This document shows positions 1-9,866 of a stretch of 64,000 bases of DNA, piece by piece (position 1 is the first letter of the stretch; every line of letters starts with the position of its first letter). The stretch spans positions 7,908 through 71,907 of the forward strand of contig JAIKVL010000033.1 of assembly GCA_024685775.1 (NCBI GenBank). Reading direction: 5' to 3'. Under the pieces are notes generated by a model. It saw nothing but the letters and a program-made list of their open reading frames with translations, was not told the DNA's origin and did not search any database. Made by a program: the position numbers and the translations under genes. This DNA is from Clostridia bacterium. Its GTDB lineage: Bacteria > Bacillota > Clostridia > Christensenellales > CAG-1252.

Positions 1-2341
1 CCATACCCGACCCACTTACGGTACAATTCGTAAGATTACTCGTTGCGCTCGGATTAGTGGCTCCGATAAGTCCGCCTACGCCGCCTTTGTATCCATAAAT
101 CAAAAACCGATCGTTTGAGCAATTCGTCATTGTCAAGCTGGCGCCCGAGGCAACGTAACCGACGATTCCGCCCACATGACCGCCGTAAGAAGTTAGTCTT
201 TTCTTGGCGGATTTAACAGATACATTTCTCAGCGTAACAGATCCCAAAACGTGCCCAATGACACCGCCGACCTTTGCGCTGTCGTTATCATTATTTAAAC
301 CTCTATCGTCGGAATACTGAATTGTCAAGTTGTTGATCGTCGCAGTGTTCAACCGACGGAAAAAGCCCCACTCGCTTCGATTCGTCTTAGCAAAACTATT
401 GATCGTGATCGTGTGGGAACCGCCCTCAAAGACCGCGCCGTTATTAAGCTCCCAAATGCCCCACCATCTATTAAGCGTCAAATCATTTTGCAATTCATAA
501 TAAGCTCCGCGGAAGCGCACGTATAAACCGGTGCCATTCGCGTTATAATCCATTTCCACACCGCCGACAACGGAATTCGCTTGCGCTTGGTTGTAAATGC
601 GATATCTTGACGTACCGCTTCCGAGACCGACCGGCATCGGACAGCCTTTCGGAATGGGAATCCCGTTTTTGGGGAAATACCAATACGTAGTGCTGTACGG
701 GCTGGAAACGGTGGCAGTGGTGAGACCGTTGGTGGAAAGAATCGTCGGAGGATTGTAATAAAGGTAAGAAGTGTTATCGCATATGGAAAGCTTTGTATTC
801 TCCGTCGAGACAATACAAGTCCCGTTGTGACTGGAATAGGCGGGGCCTTCCCCCGGCTCAATGAGATACTGAACGGTTGTGTTTCCGACTTTGCAGCTCC
901 CCGTCTTGCAGAACAGATTGGTGTTGCTATCCATATAGTCGGTCTTTCCCGCAAGAGTGGAAATGTCGTAGCCGCTGACGCCGCTCGTACACGTGATGTT
1001 ACCCGCGAAATAACATTCGTCGATACACATCCAATTGGAATTCTGTCCTCCGATCATCTGCCCGCAAATGCCGCCGATATAATCGCAGCTCGAACCGCCC
1101 GTTATCTTCATTGCGCTGCCGCAGCGCTGGATCGCCACCCTGCCATAGTGCGTGATATCGGTATGACCGCAAATGCCGCCCGCGTTTTTCAGGACTTTTC
1201 CCGAGGCGTTTATTTCCCCCGTGCTGTAACACTGCGTGATCGACGTATAATCGGTTTTGTTACTGTTTGAGTCGTTTATTCCCGACCACCCGACGACGCC
1301 GCCGATTCCGTCCTTTGTGTAATCGTTATCGACGGTGATCTTCATATGCGAATAGACGTTGGTCACAAAAACGTGATCTTTCATCCAACCGACCAAACCG
1401 CCGACGAATCTGTTGGAGGATTCGTTTACCTTAATCTCTCCGAAAATCGAAAGTCCTCCGATTCCCGAGCAGTAGGCATTGCCATCACCAAGTTCTGAGA
1501 GATAACCGAAAAGCCCGACCGATTCCAAAGCAAGGTTATCGATATACATTCCGGTGATCGAATAACCGCCGCCGCTGAATCTGCCCTTGAACGGATGGCT
1601 TGACGATCCGATCGGAACATCCCAATAGTGATCTTCGAGATCGAGGTTATTGGCGAGTTGAAAGCACCCGCTCGTAAAAGACGTATTGCCTATGTCTTTT
1701 CCGGCATTGATGCGATACGCCATACTCGCGAGTTGCTCCTCGGATCTAATGAGCCAAGGATCCGAATACGTTCCGCTACCGCCGCCATACTTAAACTTCC
1801 CGGAATCGACGCCGTCGCCGGACGCTCTATGCCCACTCCAATTCTCCGAAATCGCCGCTTTCGCCGTTTCGACGGTCGGACTGACGAGCTTTACGTTATC
1901 GTACAAGCCGAGGAGCACGATCGCAAAGACCGCGATCAAAAGAATCGGGACGAGGATCGCTTTGAAAAGAGAAGGCTTTTTCGCTCTATCCGCCGCGCTT
2001 ACGCTTTCGCCGCGCTTCGCAGAAGATTCGCATTGCGACGGAGCCGCACCGCGAGCCTGCCGAAGGATTTTACTTGATTTCATAGTTTCGTCATTCTGCG
2101 CGAAGCGAAGAATCTCATCCGCTTTCATAGTTTCGTCATTCTGCGCGGAGCGAAGAATCTCATCCGCTTTCATAGCTTCGTCATGTTGCACCGAAGGTCC
2201 GCGTAGAGGCGAAGCTTCATAGCGAGCCTGTCGAAACATCTCATCCGCTTTCGAAAGAGAAGAGGCGCCGCGACGCTCACGATCGAGCCCCACGCGCTTT
2301 ACTGCGTATTCGCCGTTTTTATTCGGTTTCGCGCATTTCAT
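1..2341 (-). CDS. GLUG-motif cell-surface protein, 5' part only (gene continues past the left edge)
   Basis: The gene is edge-truncated and therefore absent from the ORF track. By hand translation of the reverse strand, ATG 2341 is preceded by AAGGAG with a 7 nt spacer, and an in-frame alternative ATG lies at 2083. The translation gives a TM anchor LFKAILVPILLIAVFAIVLLGL. It then reads HPFKGRFSGGGYSITGMYI, VGLFGYL, FVGGLVGW ... GGIVGYVASG, GGVGGLIGA, which is the GLUG-type repeat pattern of large adhesin/IgA-protease-like proteins. The frame at positions 2-4 agrees with the frame at 2083/2341. The middle was not translated codon by codon. Confidence 0.7.
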   Translation of the reverse strand, partial: MKCAKPNKNGEYAVKRVGLDRERRGASSLSKADEMFRQARYEASPLRGPSVQHDEAMKADEILRSAQNDETMKADEILRFAQNDETMKSSKILRQARGAAPSQCESSAKRGESVSAADRAKKPSLFKAILVPILLIAVFAIVLLGLYDNVKLVSPTVETAKAAISENWSGHRASGDGVDSGKFKYGGGSGTYSDPWLIRSEEQLASMAYRINAGKDIGNTSFTSGCFQLANNLDLEDHYWDVPIGSSSHPFKGRFSGGGYSITGMYIDNLALESVGLFGYLSELGDGNAYCSGIGGLSIFGEIKVNESSNRFVGGLVGWMKDHVFVTNVYSHMKITVDNDYTKDGIGGVVGWSGINDSNSNKTDYTSITQCYSTGEINASGKVLKNAGGICGHTDITHYGRVAIQRCGSAMKITGGSSCDYIGGICGQMIGGQNSNWMCIDECYFAGNITCTSGVSGYDISTLAGKTDYMDSNTNLFCKTGSCKVGNTTVQYLIEPGEGPAYSSHNGTCIVSTENTKLSICDNTSYLYYNPPTILSTNGLTTATVSSPYSTTYWYFPKNGIPIPKGCPMPVGLGSGTSRYRIYNQAQANSVVGGVEMDYNANGTGLYVRFRGAYYELQNDLTLNRWWGIWELNNGAVFEGGSHTITINSFAKTNRSEWGFFRRLNTATINNLTIQYSDDRGLNNDNDSAKVGGVIGHVLGSVTLRNVSVKSAKKRLTSYGGHVGGIVGYVASGASLTMTNCSNDRFLIYGYKGGVGGLIGATNPSATSNLTNCTVSGSGM
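2081..2170 (+). repeat. Two tandem 45-bp copies of a hairpin repeat (GTC-ATTCT-GCGCGAAGCGA-AGAAT-CTCATCC) inside the 5' end of the GLUG ORF
   Basis: 2081-2125 and 2126-2170 are nearly identical, and a longer variant (arms ATGTT/AACAT) follows at about 2171-2250. In the reverse coding frame they read MKADEILR(S/F)AQNDET twice. Confidence 0.85.
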
Positions 2342-3778
2342 AGTCAAACTCCTTTTTTCTTTGCCGCCCGCAAGCGGCGCGTTGGTTACCGTTTTTCTTT
2401 CGCCCGTTATCGGCGGGCTGCTCTTTTACTAATTCGTCATCCTGAGCTGCGAGAGTATCGAGCGCGCCGAAGGATCTTATCCGCATTACACTTTCGTCAT
2501 CCTGAGCTGCGAGAGTATCGAGCGCGCCGAAGGATCTTATCCATTTCTCGTCGCTTCTTGCCGCTTCTTGCCGCTTCGCCTTAGGGGATTCCTCGACGAC
2601 GGCGCTTTTGCGCCTACTCGGAATGACGTGCCTTTTTTCATTCGTCATGTCGAGCAAAGTCGAGACATCTCATCCGCGAAACCCTGCTTTCTCAACCCGC
2701 CTTGCGGCGGTAAACAGGTAATCGGCGATTTCTCCGCTCCGCTTCGCTTCGGTCGAAATGACAATGTTGCTTTCCTGCGCAGTTTCTTTATTTGTCATCC
2801 TGCACCGAAGGTCCGCGTAGAGGCAAAGCCTCATAGCGAGCCTGTCGAAGGATCTCATCCGCGAAGCCTGTTTCTCGAAGCCTCTCACACGCGAGCGTGT
2901 GCGGGCGCATCGCCTGCAAACGCGAAAGCCGCTACAAGAGAGAACGGAAAATTCCGAGTCCTTGCGCGGTCGCTGCTTTTCATATACCGATTTCGAGGCG
3001 GGGACGCCGCCCGCATTGAGAGCCGCCGCTCTTTTTATTTTATAAAAAGGGAGCCGCATTTCTCGCCGCATTTATATAATAATATATAGCGCGCCCGATT
3101 TCAATACCCCTCGCGAAATTTCTCCGATTTTTTGCCGATTTGTAAGCATCGCTTTGCAAAAATAGCGGGGTTTGTAATAGTTTTTTAACGAAATTTTCAG
3201 AAATATTAAGAAAATTTAATCATTGAGAGGAACCGAAACACCCCCCGCGGGAAGCCGAACCCCCTTAAACCAAACGCCGAATCAAAGCGAGTAATCGGCG
3301 ATTTCTCGACAAGCTCGAAATGACATTGGAACTTTGCCTGCGCAGACACTTTCTGTTCCGTCATCCCGAGGAATTCGAGGGATCGCCTTGCATTCTCCCC
3401 CCGCAAAGCCATGCTTTTTCAACCCGCCTTGCGGCGGTAAGCAGTAATCGGCGATTTCTCCGCTCCGCTTCGCTTCGGTCGAAATGACAAGATAGGCTTA
3501 GTCCGTGCTGTCATTTTCTTTTTTGTCATCCTGAGCCGCCGTCAGGCGCGCCGAAGGATCGCCTTGTACCGCCACCCGCAAAGTCCTGCTTCTCCGTCCG
3601 CCCTTCGGCGGTAAGCAGTAATCGGCGATTTCTCGACAAGCTCGAAATGACATTGGAACTTTGCCTGCGCAGACACTTTCTGTTCCGTCTTCCCGAGGAA
3701 TTCGAAGGATCGCCCTGTACCGTTACCCGCAAAGCCGCGCCTTCAAAAATTGCAAGCATTATTCGCACATTACAAGAA
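2342..3778 (+). repeat. Intergenic array of modular hairpin repeats, left of the GIY-YIG gene
   Basis: There are repeated modules, all in the same orientation. H1 is CCGCC-loop-GGCGG. L is GCG-ATTTC...GAAAT-GACA (copies starting at 2719, 3292, 3445, 3619). M is the inverted repeat ATGACA...TGTCAT around a 25-35 nt spacer that often carries CTGCGCAG. R is GTC-ATCCT...AGGAT-C with variants. A 50-bp identical core occurs twice with a 60-bp period (2433-2482 and 2493-2542). An AT-rich island with promoter-like hexamers lies at about 3040-3230. Confidence 0.85.
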
Positions 3779-4072
3779 TTAGTCTTCTTCCGTAAACGTT
3801 TCGGATAAATCCTTCCAAAACGGATTATTTTCATTGATAAGAGCGACTTTTTTCTCGCGACGCCAGCCTTTCAGTTGCTTCTCCCTCGAAATGGCGGCAT
3901 ACGCATCGCCGCAGGATTCCGCATACACGAGTTTATGAACGGCGTAACGCTTGGTAAACCCCTCGATCGCGCCGCTTTTATGCTCCGCAATACGACGAAT
4001 CAGATCATTCGTCACCCCGATATAAAGCGTTCGATTGTTTTCACTTGCCAAGATATAGACGTAATAATTCAT
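3779..4072 (-). CDS. GIY-YIG nuclease family protein (small UPF0213/YhbQ-SLX1-like type)
   Basis: The translation MNYYVYILASENNRTLYIGVTNDLIRRIAEHKSG...KRYAVHKLVYAE...AISREKQLKGWRREKK carries the GIY/YIG, Arg and Glu motifs of the family. ATG 4072 follows a purine-rich GGTGGGGAAGAAA. The ORF track starts 12 nt upstream at GTG 4084. Confidence 0.85.
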   Translation of the reverse strand: MNYYVYILASENNRTLYIGVTNDLIRRIAEHKSGAIEGFTKRYAVHKLVYAESCGDAYAAISREKQLKGWRREKKVALINENNPFWKDLSETFTEED

Positions 4073-4626
4073 TTTCTTCCCCACCCGCCCTGCGGCGGTA
4101 AACAGTAATCGGCGATTTCTCCGCTCCGCTTCGCTTCGGTCGAAATGACATGTAGCTTTCCTGCGCAGTTTCTTTATTTGTCATCCTGAGCCGCGAGAAC
4201 ATCGAGCGTGCCGAAGGATCGCCTTGTACTTTCGACCCGCAAAACCCTGCTTCTCATCCCGCTCTTTGAGCGGTAAACAGGTAATCGGCGATTTCTCGAC
4301 AAGTTCGAAATGACATTAAAACTATGCCTGCGCAGACAAATTCTATTCCGTCATCCCGAGGAATTCGAGGGATCGCCTTGTACATCGACCCGCAAAGCCA
4401 TGCTTCTCCGTCCGCCCTATGAGCGGTAAGCAGGTAATCGGCGATTTCTCCGCTCCGCTTCGCTTCGGTCGAAATGACAAGATAGGCTTAGTCCGTGCTG
4501 TGACTTCCTCTTTTGTCATCCTGAGCCACGAAAGTATCGAGCGTGTCGAAGGATCGCCTTGTACTCTCACCCGCGAAGCTCTGCCTCTCCGTCCGTGCTA
4601 CGGGCGCTATTTGATCTTATGCGATT
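4073..4626 (+). repeat. Intergenic array of the same modular hairpin repeats, right of the GIY-YIG gene
   Basis: Three head-to-tail H1-L-M-R units have L modules starting at 4106, 4282 and 4435 (spacing 176 and 153 bp). This mirrors the 153/174 bp spacing left of the gene. The H1 variant CCGCTC-TTT-GAGCGG at 4259-4273 shows compensatory changes. Confidence 0.85.
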
Positions 4627-6789
4627 TTATGCAATGGTATAGGAGAAATACGTAATCAACCCATCAAACGACACCGACGCGTAGAACGTCCCCTTTTCGG
4701 AGGAGTCGTAGCCGCCGATCATATCGTAGGTCAAAAAGACGGGCGTCGAAGAGCCGTCGGAATAGTTTGCGTAAAGGACGTAGCCGGAAATATCGAGCCC
4801 TTCGCCGACCGCGAAGGTCGTCTTGCCGCCCGATGTATCCACCCAAATTCCGCTCAAAGTGATTTCCTGCATACGGACGACGACCCAGCCGAAATCGCTG
4901 AATCCTAGGTAAGAAACGCGGATAACGTAGCTATCCGGAACGTTTGGATCGAAGGCAGGGTCATCGAAAGAGTACGTTGCACCGAGAGGGATTAACGCCG
5001 CAAGCGTCTTTTCCTCCTGCCGCTTTCCGCCCTCGTAATCGAGGACGACGACGCATTTTTCGGGATCGAACGCTTCGCCGACGTCATACTCCTGCATTTT
5101 GATCGAAAGCCCCGTTATGCCGAGGACGGTGTCGTCCGCGACGTTTACGTTATATTCGAGCGACTTGCCTTTATAGCGGATCGTGATGCGCTGCGAGCCC
5201 ACGACGCCCGGAGAAAAACCTTCGATCGAGACGGCGGCATTCGATAAAAGGACGCTGCCCGTCCGCGCGCCGTAACCGAATTCGAGCGTCAGCCGCGCGC
5301 CCGAGGGGATGACGAGCGCAGGCGAGGTCTTATAGGTCTTATCTTCCCATCCGGTCAAGCCCGTTATTGCCGTCAAAACGTCGGAATCATCGGGCGAAAC
5401 GACGGTTACGGACTGCGTCGCCGAAAAGCCTTGATAGGTCAAAGTCAGATCCTGCAATCCGGGCGTGTTCGGGTCGTAACCCGAGACGTATTCCGCAGTC
5501 AACGGGACGCTTTTATGCGAATAACCGTAGCCGTATTCGACCATCAGCGTGTAGTCGCCGAAAGTGAGGGCGTCACCGAGGTAAAGCCGCCCGTCCGCCG
5601 CGCCGCGCCAAAGCGTCGAAAGCCCCGTGATCCGCTTCGAATCCTCGTTTGAGACGACGCGAACGGTCGCGGATTCGGAGATCCCCATATAGGAGATCGT
5701 GAATTCGACTTGCTCACCGGGCGAATCGAACGGTCCTTTGGTAACGACCATTTCTTCCGTCAGCGCCACGCGCACCGAACCCGTGTAATATCGGTACTTA
5801 ACGCTTAAAAATGCCTCTTCGAGATCGGGCTTTTCGCCGACTTTATAGACGCGCTTCGGCAAAATCAGCTCCATATTTTCGATCGCGTACTGCTCGCCTT
5901 TCAGATACGCTTCTGCGTTGAAAACGAAGGTTTTTCCGCGATAAGATAGTTCCAAAGTCGTCTGGTAATTTTCCGCTCGCTCTTCGAGCCAAGAAGTCTT
6001 GATCTCGACGTATTCGTTATAAATCGAGACGTTTTCCGTCGTCAGATCGGTGTAGGTGACGAGGATGGTCCCGTTTCCCATAACGTTCTCTTTGGTCAGC
6101 GGCGCGCCCTGCTCCGCATAGAGTTTTCCCGCCGCTTCAAGGGATTTTATGACCTTCATTACCGTGTAACGGTAAACGCAGGAAATCGAGCCTCGGAAAG
6201 TCACCGTCGCTTCATATTCCCCGCTCTTCGCGCTGTCGAATCCCGAGATCATATCGGGCGTAATCGGGAAGGATCGGAAGGGCTTATCTTTATATGACAA
6301 GTCCAATATTCCACCTGTGGAAATAGCTTCGTTCGGCTCGTATTCCGTCTTCATACTGCCGACCCGTACCGAACATTCGGTTTCTTCCAACGAGACGACG
6401 AGGACGGTCGCGGGGATCGAACGATTTTTATAAGTGACCGTAACGTCCTTTTCGCCCCGCTCCTGTGTGTCGAACGGCGAAAGCATATAAGGCTTTACTT
6501 CGACGCGCGTTTTCTTCCCGGATCGCCGCGTAACGACGAGGAAAAGCCCGCCGTCATACTCTTCTCCCGCGAGGAGGACGGCGCCGCCTTCGGCGGTCAC
6601 GCTCTTGATCGGGAGCGTCAAGCCGAGCGAAAGCCCCAGCGCCAAAACGACGAGAAAAGCGCAGATTATCGCGATCGCGACGATCTTTTGCTTCGCCGTC
6701 CAAGCGGCGAAGAACTCTTTGATTTTTATCAGCTTTTCCCGTATTTTCATTTCAGTCCGTTTTACTCTTTTGCTCCGATTTCTCAGCAT
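4627..6789 (-). CDS. Membrane-anchored envelope protein made of bacterial Ig-like (Big_3-like) repeats
   Basis: This is a 720-aa ORF with an N-terminal TM (IVAIAIICAFLVVLALGLSLGL). It has repeated ~85-aa units ending in G(F/Y)DS..G.y...V.Y.G.s....V.V, for example SGFDSAKSGEYEATVTFRG and SGYDPNTPGLQDLTLTYQGFSATQSVTVV. The start is uncertain (ATG 6789 or 6750). Confidence 0.8.
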   Translation of the reverse strand: MLRNRSKRVKRTEMKIREKLIKIKEFFAAWTAKQKIVAIAIICAFLVVLALGLSLGLTLPIKSVTAEGGAVLLAGEEYDGGLFLVVTRRSGKKTRVEVKPYMLSPFDTQERGEKDVTVTYKNRSIPATVLVVSLEETECSVRVGSMKTEYEPNEAISTGGILDLSYKDKPFRSFPITPDMISGFDSAKSGEYEATVTFRGSISCVYRYTVMKVIKSLEAAGKLYAEQGAPLTKENVMGNGTILVTYTDLTTENVSIYNEYVEIKTSWLEERAENYQTTLELSYRGKTFVFNAEAYLKGEQYAIENMELILPKRVYKVGEKPDLEEAFLSVKYRYYTGSVRVALTEEMVVTKGPFDSPGEQVEFTISYMGISESATVRVVSNEDSKRITGLSTLWRGAADGRLYLGDALTFGDYTLMVEYGYGYSHKSVPLTAEYVSGYDPNTPGLQDLTLTYQGFSATQSVTVVSPDDSDVLTAITGLTGWEDKTYKTSPALVIPSGARLTLEFGYGARTGSVLLSNAAVSIEGFSPGVVGSQRITIRYKGKSLEYNVNVADDTVLGITGLSIKMQEYDVGEAFDPEKCVVVLDYEGGKRQEEKTLAALIPLGATYSFDDPAFDPNVPDSYVIRVSYLGFSDFGWVVVRMQEITLSGIWVDTSGGKTTFAVGEGLDISGYVLYANYSDGSSTPVFLTYDMIGGYDSSEKGTFYASVSFDGLITYFSYTIA

Positions 6790-7313
6790 TTTTCGTTAGT
6801 TTTCGCGCGCGCCGCGCGCCTTTTCCCGCTTCACATCAGGGGATCCTTCACTGCGTTCAGGATGACGCATTATTACCCAATTCGTCATGTTGAGCGAAGT
6901 CGAAACATCTCATTATTTCTTGCCGCTTCGCATTAGGGGATTCCTCGACGACGGCGCTTTTGCGCCTGCTCGGAATGACGCGCTTTTTTTCGTTCGTCAT
7001 CCTGAGCCGCGAGAACATCGAGCGTGTCGAAGGATCTCATCCGCTTCCTCCATTTCGTCATCCTGAGCCGCCGTTAGGCGTGTCGAAGGATCTCATCCTA
7101 TTCCCGTCCGCCCTGCGGCGGTAAACAGGTAATCGGCGATTTCTCCGCTCCGCTTCGCTTCGGTCGAAATGACATTGTAGTCGGAGTCTGCGCCGTCACT
7201 TTCTTTTTTTGTCATCCTGAGCCGCGAGAGTATCGAGCGAGCCGAAGGATCGCCTTGCACCGCTACCCGCGAAGCCCTGCTTAAACCTTTCCGCTTTCCT
7301 TCCGTAAGCGCCG
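6790..7313 (+). repeat. Third block of the modular hairpin repeats, between the two Ig-repeat genes
   Basis: It contains R-type hairpins at about 6883, 6994, 7054 and 7210, and an L module at 7130. A 62-bp module at 6919-6980 matches 2567-2628 with 2 mismatches. All copies have the same orientation as in 2081-4626. Confidence 0.85.
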
Positions 7314-9824
7314 CTATACGCGCTCGCGTACGGAATACGCGTACACCGCGCTCTTTCCCCCATACGCGATCGTTATCGCGTAATCGCCCGAATTTTCCGT
7401 CGAAAACTCGGGAGCCATATCCGCCGTTACGTTGACATGAGCCGACTCGCCCGACGCATACGACACCGAAAGGACGACGCCCGAAAGCGCGCTTCCCTTT
7501 TCGAACTCGGTCACCGAAGAACCGTCGATCTCGATCCGATCGACGACCGCTTCGCCGCCCGCTGCCGCAAAGGAAACGAGCGCATGGCAGGTTTTGCCCT
7601 TATAGGTGATCTCGACGCGTTCGACGCCGACTCTATCCACGGAGAACGGCGAAATTTCGACGCCCGCGGACGAAAGAGGAATATAGACGCGCCTGAGTCC
7701 GTAGCCGTATTCAAGCGTCAGAGGAGCCTTGGTAAGATCGGGATAGACGCCGACCGAAGAGCGGATCTCCTCGGCGTAGATCGCCGTGATCTCGGTTTTT
7801 TCGGAGACCGGATGCACCGCCACCGCAAAGGACTTTTCAAAGCCCTGATAGCGGAAAAGGACGGAGCTTTGCCCTTCTTCCGCAAAAGGCCCGCCGGAAA
7901 GCATCGAGGCTTCGAGCGGCAGGGTCTGCTCGGAATAACCGTAACCGAGCGTCAAAAGGACGCTTGCTCCCGCGATCGCTTCCGCGGTCAAAGAATCGCC
8001 CGCGAAAAGGACGGGATTGAAATCCAAAAGCAACGCATCCGTCGGTTTGTCTTTATCTTCCGCGGCGATCACGCGGATCGTTGCGGAGCAGGAAACGCCC
8101 TCGTAGGCGATCGTAATCGTCGTCTCGCCCGGCGCGGAAGAATCGAAGCCCGAGATCGCGGCGCTCGAAAGCGGAATCTCGCTCTCCAAGCGATAATTCC
8201 CGCCGTAATAGGCGATCAGCCCCGCTTGCGGGAATTCGGGCGAGCTCCCCGTCAAGACGATCGAGGGGAGATTATAGACGGCGATCGACGTTACGCGCGC
8301 GGCGTATGCGGCGGAAAGGACGTTTACGGTCGATTCGACGGTCTTCCCGAGCAGGCTGACCGTGATCGGGCGCGTCTCGTAATCTCCCGTTACGGGAGAA
8401 GAAGCGTCGAACGCGATCATCGACGATTCGAGCGGGACCGAAGCGGGTTCGAGGTATTTATAGCGGACGAAGACCATCATCCCCTCGACATCCGGTTCTT
8501 CTCCCGCAAGAATGGGCTTGAACGCGCCGCTGAGCTCGATCTCTTCGACGGCGTTTCGCTCTTCGGGATCATAGACCGTTACGGTAAAGAAGCATTCTTC
8601 TTCGCGGAAGACGACCTTTTGCCGCGTTTCGCCCACGGCGGACGTAATATACGTCAAGGTCAGCCTCGGATCGTTCAGCGGGATATTCTCCGTTTCACCG
8701 TCCTCATACGAGATCGCGAGGAAGCCGAATCCATCGAACGCGGAATCCTTCGGGACGGCTTCGGTAAACCCAACCGCCGTCGCTTGCGTTATGCTTCGCA
8801 GGACGACGTAAGAATAAGCGACGGTCTGACCCTGCGCGGTGATCTCCGCTTCGAACCGCCCGGCTTTCGAAGAATCGAACCCGACGACCTCCGCCGCGGT
8901 AACGGGGATATCCGCCGTCGTCCCGTCGTCATACGAGACCCGAATGACGCCGCCTTCGGGGAAGGCGCTCCGCTTTTCGATCTCGCGCGGAAGCAAATTC
9001 TCGACGAGGACCGCCGAGACCGATTTTTTGCCGACCGAATAATAGTAATCGCAAGAATAGGAAGAAAGCGAGACGCGGGCGCGGAAACTTCCGCCGAGAG
9101 CCGTCGAGAAATCGGAGACCATTTCCGCCGTAAGCGCGCGGAGAACGGTCCTGCCGCTCGCGTATTGGAATTTAACGTTCACGCCGCTCGTAAAAAGCGG
9201 TTCGCCGACGGAGTACTCCGACTTCGCGCCCACAAGCGAGACCGACGCGACGGAATCTTCTTTTACCGTCAGCTCGAAAGAATCGGACTCTCCCGCGTAG
9301 GTCACGCTGACGACCTGCGCCCCGAGCCGCATGGGATCGAAGCCGCCGAGCATCGAAGCCGTGATCGGGACGCCCGTTCGGGCGGCGCCGTTTATCATCG
9401 TCGCGCTGAGCGTCGCGCCTTCGGGGAAAGGTTGCCCCTTATAGACGACGCGCGGCAACGTTTCCTCATCCAAGGAGATCGCGGTCGCGACGAGCGGCCA
9501 AATGCGAAGACGCACTTTCGTTTTTTTCCCGGCGAAGGTGATCGTGATCATACAATCGCCTTGCTCGGAACTGTCGAACCCGGAAATCATATCCGCCGTA
9601 ATCGGAGTTACGCCGAAATAATCGGTTTGGTACCCGACTTTCAAAGTCCCCGTCGGATCCAACTCGTCGCCGACGAAATACTCGGTCTTGAAATCATCCA
9701 TAACGGAGAGATACAAAGGTCCGTCCGAAGAGCTTTTTTTACACGCGGAAAAAAGCACGCTCGAAATCAAAGCGAGCGCCGCGATCAAAAAAACAAACGT
9801 CGAAATTTTTATACTCTTCCGCAT
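7314..9824 (-). CDS. Lipoprotein made of bacterial Ig-like (Big_3-like) repeats, paralog of 4627-6789
   Basis: ATG 9824 is preceded by GAAGGA, and the N-terminus MRKSIKISTFVFLIAALALISSVLFSAC has a lipobox. There are eight or so repeats with GFDSS..G motifs (SGFDSSEQGDCMITITFAGK, VGFDSSKAGRFEAEITAQGQ, SGFDSSAPGETTITIAYEGV). The ORF track starts at 9854. Confidence 0.85.
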   Translation of the reverse strand: MRKSIKISTFVFLIAALALISSVLFSACKKSSSDGPLYLSVMDDFKTEYFVGDELDPTGTLKVGYQTDYFGVTPITADMISGFDSSEQGDCMITITFAGKKTKVRLRIWPLVATAISLDEETLPRVVYKGQPFPEGATLSATMINGAARTGVPITASMLGGFDPMRLGAQVVSVTYAGESDSFELTVKEDSVASVSLVGAKSEYSVGEPLFTSGVNVKFQYASGRTVLRALTAEMVSDFSTALGGSFRARVSLSSYSCDYYYSVGKKSVSAVLVENLLPREIEKRSAFPEGGVIRVSYDDGTTADIPVTAAEVVGFDSSKAGRFEAEITAQGQTVAYSYVVLRSITQATAVGFTEAVPKDSAFDGFGFLAISYEDGETENIPLNDPRLTLTYITSAVGETRQKVVFREEECFFTVTVYDPEERNAVEEIELSGAFKPILAGEEPDVEGMMVFVRYKYLEPASVPLESSMIAFDASSPVTGDYETRPITVSLLGKTVESTVNVLSAAYAARVTSIAVYNLPSIVLTGSSPEFPQAGLIAYYGGNYRLESEIPLSSAAISGFDSSAPGETTITIAYEGVSCSATIRVIAAEDKDKPTDALLLDFNPVLFAGDSLTAEAIAGASVLLTLGYGYSEQTLPLEASMLSGGPFAEEGQSSVLFRYQGFEKSFAVAVHPVSEKTEITAIYAEEIRSSVGVYPDLTKAPLTLEYGYGLRRVYIPLSSAGVEISPFSVDRVGVERVEITYKGKTCHALVSFAAAGGEAVVDRIEIDGSSVTEFEKGSALSGVVLSVSYASGESAHVNVTADMAPEFSTENSGDYAITIAYGGKSAVYAYSVRERV

Positions 9825-9866
9825 ACGGTTTCCTTCGCTCAGCAAGCGCGCCAAGCACTATAAGAC

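Follow-up and report, generated by a model that had tools for sequence, protein, structure and literature searches.

A probable Ssn/SRM locus in an uncultured Clostridia-like bacterium: a small GIY-YIG nuclease gene set among alternating hairpin repeats

A 64,000-nt stretch of DNA from a Clostridia bacterium (GenBank assembly GCA_024685775.1, contig JAIKVL010000033.1, positions 7,908 to 71,907; hereafter the window) contains a small nuclease gene embedded in an array of short hairpin repeats. The gene, a minus-strand open reading frame (ORF) of 97 codons at 3779-4072, encodes a protein with a single GIY-YIG domain, as a preliminary description of the sequence had recognized. Its gene neighbours all lie on the minus strand as well and comprise a giant ORF running off the left end of the window and two genes, at 4627-6789 and 7314-9854, for proteins with bacterial Ig-like (Big_3) domains. 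We here compare the nuclease and the repeats with the Ssn/SRM system, in which a nuclease of this kind is paired with hairpin repeats known as SRMs.

One member of that system, SsnA of Neisseria meningitidis, is a 94-aa single-domain GIY-YIG protein (cd10448) that acts as a site-specific nuclease on single-stranded DNA (ssDNA) only (Chenal et al., Nat Commun 2025; PMC11893778). SsnA binds a hairpin repeat, NTS (CGTCATTCCCGCGMAVGCGGGAATCYRG), and cuts a few nt upstream of it; the three bases before the palindrome (GTC) matter most for cleavage and the C right after it for binding, and neither RNA nor double-stranded DNA (dsDNA) is bound (PMC11893778). In Neisseria, the system limits the recombination of incoming repeat-bearing ssDNA, and the repeats cluster at surface-protein genes. 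Across bacteria, Ssn homologues are flanked by SRMs on at least one side in 71% of cases and on both sides in 42%; the experimental cases are the Neisseria and Wolbachia enzymes, and Rickettsia has been noted as SRM-rich (PMC11893778).

Within the window protein, the Pfam GIY-YIG domain (PF01541) covers residues 2-74 (E = 7.6e-17) and is the only domain above threshold, a T5orf172 match over the same region remaining below it (18.7 bits vs a cut-off of 20). For comparison with Neisseria we made use of gonococcal chromosomes filed in PLSDB as plasmids: NZ_CP119140.1 and NZ_CP119142.1 are two 2.17-Mb Neisseria gonorrhoeae replicons that carry the plasmid label and evidently are chromosomes. A tblastn search with the window protein gave one match per chromosome (E = 7e-22), corresponding to a 94-aa ORF with canonical NTS repeats around it on both strands, which is taken to be the SsnA orthologue. 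BLASTP aligned the two proteins without gaps over 89 residues at 55% identity (E = 3e-32), well inside the homology threshold of PMC11893778 (E < 1e-10 to SsnA) when judged on this gonococcal homologue. Residues Y6, Y17 and E64, which were mutated in the SsnA study (PMC11893778), are invariant in an alignment of 21 homologues and carry the same numbers in the gonococcal protein. The size and domain content of the window protein likewise agree with those of the Ssn family (~90-100 residues, GIY-YIG alone), and by its sequence it is an Ssn-family single-domain GIY-YIG nuclease. The relation to SLX1 suggested in the preliminary description applies at the level of the superfamily, Ssn (cd10448) being treated as a family apart from Slx1 (PMC11893778). 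A PDB search returned only distant UPF0213 proteins (E = 9.6e-6 and 0.18), an exact-sequence look-up of the 97-aa protein found no record, and no second ssn copy was found within the 64-kb window.

The repeats around ssn are copies of one hairpin element, GTC-AT-NNN-GA...loop...GA-N'N'N'-AT-C, found in a scan for 5-nt stem arms that directly follow GTC and are matched by their reverse complement. To avoid circularity, the window was searched with the anchors only (GTCAT N3 G[AC] ..3-50.. GA N3 ATC), the stem triplets being left free. This yielded 27 matches, 16 on the plus and 11 on the minus strand, all within 2090-7251, whereas dinucleotide-shuffled windows averaged 0.82 matches and never exceeded 4. 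The free triplets were exact complements in 27/27 elements and fell into seven types (TCT, CCT, CCC, TCC, TTC, GTC and GTT), whereas 10,000 permutations of the 3′ triplets gave a mean of 6.7 complementary pairs and a maximum of 17. Every stem pair listed in the preliminary description is indeed found at the coordinates given there, and its proposal of stem covariation holds, all changes being two-sided. In the alignment used for pair counting, which comprised 24 distinct copies, pairing within the 5-bp stem is 100%, and the three variable pairs always change on both sides, with one-sided changes numbering zero. The covariation score was 0.644 as compared to 0.244 in shuffles, none of 500 shuffles scoring as high, and it collapsed when the partner columns were slid. 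A sixth pair, inside the G·A step, covaries too (G-C in 16, C-G in 4 and A-T in 1).

Invariant columns across the 24 copies are GTC, AT, G, GA, AT and C. The window elements show the directional 5′ (C/T)GTCAT of SRMs and a C right after the palindrome, they retain the palindromic stem, and both gonococcal NTS copies and proteobacterial SRMs can be aligned with them. Since the invariant GTC and 3′ C are the positions critical for SsnA, they support membership of these elements in the Ssn/SRM system. None of the 27 copies is more than ~3.3 kb away from ssn, and the other 56 kb of the window are free of them. The gene, the elements and the structures that they build are as follows.

3779-4072, minus strand: ssn gene, 97-aa GIY-YIG nuclease (ORF call, Pfam, BLASTP, Y6/Y17/E64)
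3687-4149, minus strand: ssn cassette, its ends collinear with the gene-less doublets; an SRM-gene-SRM layout is also seen in the relatives' contigs L001 and L086
2090-2114, plus strand: SRM ATTCT/AGAAT, short loop, within the coding sequence (CDS) of the giant gene
2135-2159, plus strand: SRM ATTCT/AGAAT, within the giant-gene CDS
2180-2240, plus strand: SRM ATGTT/AACAT, 47-nt loop, within the giant-gene CDS
2436-2476, plus strand: SRM ATCCT/AGGAT
2496-2536, plus strand: SRM ATCCT/AGGAT
2587-2627, minus strand: SRM ATTCC/GGAAT
2644-2669, plus strand: SRM ATGTC/GACAT
2727-2762, minus strand: SRM ATTTC/GAAAT (module L of the preliminary description)
2794-2854, plus strand: SRM ATCCT/AGGAT, 47-nt loop
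3300-3324, minus strand: SRM ATTTC/GAAAT, short form
3360-3384, plus strand: SRM ATCCC/GGGAT
3453-3488, minus strand: SRM ATTTC/GAAAT, long form
3525-3560, plus strand: SRM ATCCT/AGGAT
3627-3651, minus strand: SRM ATTTC/GAAAT, short form
3687-3711, plus strand: degenerate SRM GTCTTCCC...AAGGATC, the nearest one downstream of ssn
4114-4149, minus strand: SRM ATTTC/GAAAT, the nearest one upstream of ssn, in sense orientation
4180-4220, plus strand: SRM ATCCT/AGGAT
4290-4314, minus strand: SRM ATTTC/GAAAT, short form
4350-4374, plus strand: SRM ATCCC/GGGAT
4443-4478, minus strand: SRM ATTTC/GAAAT, long form
4515-4555, plus strand: SRM ATCCT/AGGAT
6842-7251, both strands: second cluster, seven SRMs between the two Big_3 genes
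6842-6866, 6939-6979 and 7138-7173, minus strand: SRMs of the second cluster
6884-6909, 6996-7036, 7057-7092 and 7211-7251, plus strand: SRMs of the second cluster
2697-2710, no strand assigned: spacer hairpin H1, CCGCC-ttgc-GGCGG
3424-3437, 3598-3611, 4085-4098 and 7108-7121, no strand assigned: further H1 copies
4259-4273 (CCGCTC/GAGCGG), 4412-4426 (one mismatch) and 4593-4603 (CCGT/ACGG): H1 variants
3525-3651, no strand assigned: gene-less doublet of antisense SRM, ~38-nt spacer, H1 and sense SRM
2644-2762, 3360-3488, 4180-4314, 4350-4478 and 7057-7173, no strand assigned: other gene-less doublets

Along the array, SRMs alternate between strands and are separated by spacers of 16-70 nt that belong to a few families. 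Repeat families around ssn return at intervals of 153-181 nt and of 327-330 nt, in line with the units of ~153-176 bp first described; Tandem Repeats Finder reported only a 45-nt repeat at 2078-2184 and no ~160-nt period. Each composite unit of 153-176 nt consists of one antisense and one sense SRM. The array had been described as having one orientation, which is true of the composite unit; the elementary hairpins alternate, 16 on the plus and 11 on the minus strand. Nor do all four modules into which the unit had been divided stand as separate entities: R and L are one and the same element, found on the plus and the minus strand respectively, with identical GTCAT, GA...GA and ATC. M, previously regarded as a hairpin of its own (ATGAC(A)/(T)GTCAT), corresponds to the two inverted GTCAT flanks that form the ends of the divergent spacer; it never varies and is without independent evidence. 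The branched junction proposed for the abutting hairpins fared no better, as whole units folded as ssDNA not significantly more stably than shuffled sequences (z between -0.2 and -2.1). One unit type has L and R paired with each other in a single long hairpin. Thermodynamic folding thus lends support to no global fold, a four-hairpin junction included.

The fourth module, H1, resides in the convergent spacer, always between the 3′ ends of two convergent SRMs and on the side of the ssn start. Both of its previously described forms, CCGCC/GGCGG at 2697-2710 and CCGCTC/GAGCGG at 4259-4273, are present. In L001, H1 is replaced by TCTCGC/GCGAGA, and it is absent from many other homologue loci; H1 is a small lineage-specific spacer hairpin. 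The palindrome CTGCGCAG, rightly described as frequent in the spacer, occurs in five of the eight long divergent spacers (2763-2793, 3325-3359, 3652-3686, 4150-4179 and 4315-4349), where it would lie close to the Ssn cut sites expected on either strand. A possible 5′ half-site of the element is seen at 3511-3519. The extent of the array also needed revision: ~2880-3290, formerly included in a continuous repeat region of 2342-4626, is unique, promoter-like sequence conserved in relatives, and repeats occur beyond those borders, at 2006-2262 (within a CDS) and at 6842-7251.

On the minus strand, the ssn cassette reads sense SRM (4114-4149), H1, a purine-rich stretch resembling a ribosome-binding site (RBS), the ssn ORF, a ~45-nt tail and a degenerate antisense SRM (3687-3711). 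Aligning the ssn segment (3680-4160, minus strand) with six gene-less doublets revealed both ends to be collinear. Cassette and doublets share a left end of sense element, H1 and purine-rich RBS-like stretch, and a right end in which ...CTTTGCGGGT..GGTACAAGGCG is followed by the antisense element; the doublets are devoid of the ORF and the 45-nt tail, with the gap falling between two GAAG motifs. By this alignment the doublets look like ORF-less derivatives of the ssn cassette that were amplified by tandem duplication or unequal recombination. That their spacers belong to few conserved families argues for duplication of whole units rather than independent insertions.

Relatives' contigs on which the Ssn protein is 77-89% identical keep the gene order Big_3, Big_3, ssn, giant gene. 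In L001, a stem ATTCT replaces ATTTC in the sense element and the antisense element keeps ATCCC. L086, the relative at 89% identity, has one unit upstream of ssn compared with three in the window, the difference being one of whole units within the array. Two further gene contexts also harbour Ssn proteins at 76-81% identity.

A scan of GTDB species representatives extended this comparison to 80 homologue loci at 53-67% identity, drawn from more than ten phyla and including Clostridia, Chloroflexota, Patescibacteria, Bacteroidota and Proteobacteria. Hairpins of the form GTC[AT][CT]-stem...stem-C were located within 600 nt of the homologue in 70/80 loci, and on both sides in 51/80. Their density was 2.33 per kb within 500 nt of the gene and 0.14-0.28 per kb beyond, a ~10-fold difference, as would be expected from the association with GIY-YIG genes proposed at the outset. 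Orientation at these loci was biased as well: the nearest downstream element was antisense in 57/62 loci and the nearest upstream one sense in 39/59, as is the case in the window. Published SRM pattern matches were confined to 23/80 loci. The G·A-type variant of the element accounted for 160 copies in 42/81 loci, 139 of them fully paired, with ten stem types. Within loci, a stem was shared by 74% of same-orientation pairs, a figure to which tandem duplication of composite units contributes, and by 25% of opposite-orientation pairs. A metagenome scan with the 17-mer GTAATCGGCGATTTCTC was uninformative on distribution: it gave at least 120 single matches, and among those listed 118 were chance matches outside an SRM context and only L117 and L140 were real, L140 carrying an ssn gene.

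Several further observations were made at the homologue loci. In many of them, two or three tandem copies of the 5′ half of the element (GTCAT-NNN-GAGC plus ~8 nt, with a period of ~20-22 nt) precede a full hairpin, e.g. in L010 (5360-5635), L022 (4716-4777 and 5381-5531), L036 (30-329), L063 (5367-5416) and L009 (5349-5398). Repeated rounds of cutting and repair upstream of the hairpin could have left these copies behind, as could slippage. Homologues P0100, P0083 and P0031 bear N- or C-terminal extensions, such as VYLSFRPERSEVEESL... or ...GPSLRSG, that resemble translated repeats, and unannotated ORFs are called across arrays (L214, 5524-7281), so that gene callers appear to read SRM arrays as protein. 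Both observations fit the earlier remark that translations of such repeats resemble spurious hypothetical proteins.

We conclude with high confidence that this is an Ssn/SRM locus and that the repeats are the SRMs of the 97-aa Ssn nuclease. The preliminary hypothesis of a nuclease with cognate repeats, analogous to RAYT with REP/REPIN elements, is thereby upheld by Ssn homology, by the SsnA-critical flanks and by the association in 70/80 loci. Its premise that such a relationship had gone undescribed is superseded, as the system was published with biochemistry in 2025 (PMC11893778), and the window is a further example with local features, namely tandem G·A stems, gene-less doublets collinear with the cassette, and an in-frame insertion in a surface-protein gene.

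Judging from its homologues in Neisseria and Wolbachia, the window protein would be expected to cut these particular hairpins in the following way. Whenever the DNA becomes single-stranded, during replication or on entering by transformation or conjugation, the hairpin would form; Ssn would bind it, reading the stem and the C just after it, and would then cut the same strand a few nt 5′ of GTC, dsDNA and RNA presumably not serving as substrates. Such local cutting of ssDNA might modulate recombination and turnover of the flanking, fast-evolving surface-protein genes. Action at the DNA level fits better than action at the RNA level because the elements occupy both strands beside genes on one strand and show no G-T intermediates.

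Several points count against this assignment. The comparison protein is the N. gonorrhoeae homologue and not N. meningitidis SsnA itself, and the distribution of the elements is known over 64 kb of the genome. The published pattern, HGTCWYN(0-2)YYVSBRHN(0-5)WNVSBRGN(0-2)RNCYNB, has no literal match in the window, although this degenerate pattern is a search tool built from 29 genomes and not a definition. Stems in the window have only 5 bp, are closed by tandem G·A and often carry loops of 20-47 nt, and isolated hairpins, doublets and whole units fold as ssDNA with unremarkable z-scores of +0.15 to -2.06. Finally, seven stem variants surround one ssn gene. In Neisseria, changing the palindrome with its structure kept abolished activity (PMC11893778), which implies that the window enzyme tolerates a variable triplet, reading nothing beyond the flanks, the A-T pairs and the G·A step, or that some copies are not substrates.

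The regions bordering the array add to this picture, starting with the giant gene.

3076-3104, minus strand: promoter-like site TTGAAA-17-TATTAT, within a unique AT-rich region (~3040-3240) conserved with L001 7010-7200
1976-2262, minus strand: SRM-derived DNA of ~96 codons, inserted in frame in the N-terminal tail of the giant gene

The site at 3076-3104 probably drives the giant gene, which encodes a surface protein. Translation of the latter starts at an ATG at 2341-2339 (minus strand), behind an AAGGAG RBS. If the promoter is used, the leader of the giant gene would be ~730 nt long and carry seven SRMs (2436-2854). An H1-type GC hairpin, a purine-rich RBS and then an ATG precede both ssn (hairpin at 4085-4098) and the giant gene (2364-2377), and a remnant of an SRM tail, gttatcggcg, is found at 2407-2416, just beyond the H1 copy of the giant gene. 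This H1 copy and tail remnant suggest that part of the translation start region may derive from a repeat unit. Upstream of the corresponding promoter region in L001 (6780-6975), about eight short hairpins occur, all with different stems and each followed by (C)ATCTCAAG or a close variant; they are a repeat type distinct from SRMs, and their orientation is opposite to that of the ...ATCTCATCC tails of the window SRMs.

The insertion in the giant gene was judged against the relative at 89% identity, L086: residues 1-32 of the window protein correspond to L086 residues 1-32, and the window protein from residue 118 onward to L086 from residue 22 onward. Three SRMs (2090-2114, 2135-2159 and 2180-2240) and a degenerate copy (2006-2077) make up the inserted DNA, which is translated antisense as ...ADEILRSAQNDETMK.... 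Imperfect direct repeats of 17-18 nt flank it, CGCTTTGAAAAGAGAAGG at 1958-1975 and CGCTTTCGAAAGAGAAG at 2246-2262. At the junction of the two Big_3 genes (6790-7313), the seven-SRM cluster is absent from relatives, the orthologues in L001 being ~12 nt apart and the genes in L088 overlapping; the cluster at 6842-7251 is either a gain in the window or a loss in the relatives. The two Big_3 proteins (window 4627-9854, L001 919-5745) are 36-42% identical between window and L001, compared with 80% for Ssn, a divergence reminiscent of Neisseria, in which genes flanked by repeats are reported to show raised diversity.

These features bring up the strongest alternative, which partly overlaps with the Ssn/SRM explanation and which we nevertheless regard as unlikely: that SRM-ssn-SRM is or was a transposable cassette, with differently stemmed SRMs as its left and right ends and the doublets as MITE- or REPIN-like derivatives mobilised by Ssn. 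The doublets are collinear with both cassette ends and miss the ORF between the two GAAG motifs, as such derivatives would. The prevailing layout of a sense SRM upstream (39/59) and an antisense one downstream (57/62) resembles inverted ends, and the preferential sharing of stems by same-orientation pairs (74% vs 25%) points the same way. A block of SRMs sits in frame in a coding gene between imperfect 17-18-nt direct repeats, the 6842-7251 cluster is missing from the same junction in relatives, and ssn genes at 76-81% identity occupy at least three gene contexts. An IS-like architecture was also raised by the authors of PMC11893778. Against transposition, relatives at 77-89% identity keep ssn in synteny (Big_3, Big_3, ssn, giant gene). 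Compared with L086, the array differs in size by whole units inside it, as unequal recombination would produce, and the few conserved families of inter-doublet spacers bespeak duplication of units and not independent insertion. Moreover, a doublet has one SRM on each strand and so offers only one cleavage site per single strand, and a clean empty site with target duplication at an unrelated locus was not found. GIY-YIG enzymes are hydrolytic nucleases with no known strand-transfer activity. A bolder version, in which SRM-H1-ssn-SRM would be a new kind of mobile unit driven by a GIY-YIG enzyme, the doublets having spread both between genes and, in frame, into surface-protein genes and the arrays being insertion products, seems decidedly unlikely to us.

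We consider it improbable that the repeats are RNA-level elements, i.e. hairpins acting in transcripts, of which REP elements are capable, as stabilisers, attenuators or protein-binding sites, k-turn-like by virtue of their G·A pairs, with the nuclease gene a mere neighbour. Tandem G·A pairs beside a helix are a known RNA motif, the repeats are probably transcribed, given their position in a probable 5′ leader and between co-directional genes, and stem covariation alone cannot separate RNA from ssDNA. However, the nearby genes are all on the minus strand, while the elements are distributed 16 to 11 over plus and minus, each with a directional GTC...C on its own strand, and one-sided changes of the G-U type number zero in the 24 distinct copies. 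Rfam gave no match at gathering thresholds in the whole window, nor at E up to 1 in 1900-7400. The elements further track ssn genes across phyla, and neisserial SsnA does not bind RNA (PMC11893778). The structure had initially been assigned to RNA or ssDNA alike; of the two, ssDNA is favoured and RNA disfavoured. Interpreting the tandem G·A as a k-turn or another RNA motif was set aside on the grounds that the elements occur on both strands of a one-strand gene cluster without G-U-type changes.

It is very improbable that the array is inert debris of slippage and unequal crossing-over that has no protein partner, its stems kept by intrastrand templated repair and its link to ssn due to hitch-hiking. 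The number of array copies does vary between close relatives, folding energies are unremarkable, and templated correction would account for the lack of one-sided stem changes, but this leaves unexplained why GTCAT-hairpin-ATC elements with different stems flank homologues in more than ten phyla and why the invariant positions coincide with the binding and cleavage positions of SsnA. Classical REP/BIME or IS200/IS605-type repeats served by an HUH/Y1 transposase such as RAYT can be dismissed almost entirely, since, despite a BIME-like arrangement of alternating hairpins with regular spacers, the repeats frame a GIY-YIG gene and not a Y1 gene, the element flanks match NTS/SRM, and nothing else framed by repeats was seen in the window, the rest of which was not screened for Y1 transposases.

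The hypothesis of a small nuclease with its own structured repeats was right in substance, and it opens no new class. The value of the locus is that of a well-resolved example outside Proteobacteria, showing a Clostridia-like genome to carry Ssn-type repeats in alternating arrays of the NIME/BIME kind. As a common variant of the element (5-bp stem, tandem G·A and long loops) escapes the published pattern, surveys based on that pattern probably undercount the system. Seven compensated stem variants beside one enzyme provide a direct test of whether Ssn reads sequence, or structure and flanks, and the doublets and the in-frame insertion bear on whether the nuclease spreads its repeats and whether the repeats drive variation of the flanking genes.

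Among known systems, the authors of PMC11893778 compare Ssn with IS200/IS605 transposases, REP elements and BIMEs. The present array shares with REP/BIME and REPIN-RAYT systems (PMC3116915, PMC2817692) its short, alternating extragenic hairpins and a cognate nuclease gene framed by its own repeats, and its doublets are candidate non-autonomous units comparable to REPINs. In contrast to RAYT, a HUH/Y1 tyrosine transposase, the window enzyme is a hydrolytic GIY-YIG nuclease; unlike in REPINs, the two hairpins of a doublet differ in stem and, except weakly in one unit type, form no long hairpin. Rickettsia palindromic elements are palindromic repeats able to sit in frame inside protein-coding genes, much as the repeats at 1976-2262 do.

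NIMEs, in which dRS3 inverted repeats separate RS elements, were said in 2007 not to occur outside Neisseria (PMC1797815). Like NIMEs, the window holds arrays of inverted-repeat hairpins with 16-70-nt spacer families, beside variable surface-protein genes and with a content that differs between relatives. However, it includes a nuclease gene and gene-less cassette copies, and a search for the dRS3 motif ATTCCC-N8-GGGAAT gave no match in the window with up to one mismatch allowed; the array is NIME-like in architecture but not a NIME. The closest counterpart is Ssn with its NTS/SRM repeats, with which the window shares a GIY-YIG protein of ~94-97 aa whose gene is framed on both sides by GTCAT-palindrome(AT...AT)-C repeats near surface-protein genes. 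It differs in its host, an uncultured Clostridia-like bacterium, in a stem of 5 bp with three covarying positions and tandem G·A instead of a continuous GC-rich stem, in loops of up to 47 nt, and in the assembly of seven stem types around one gene.

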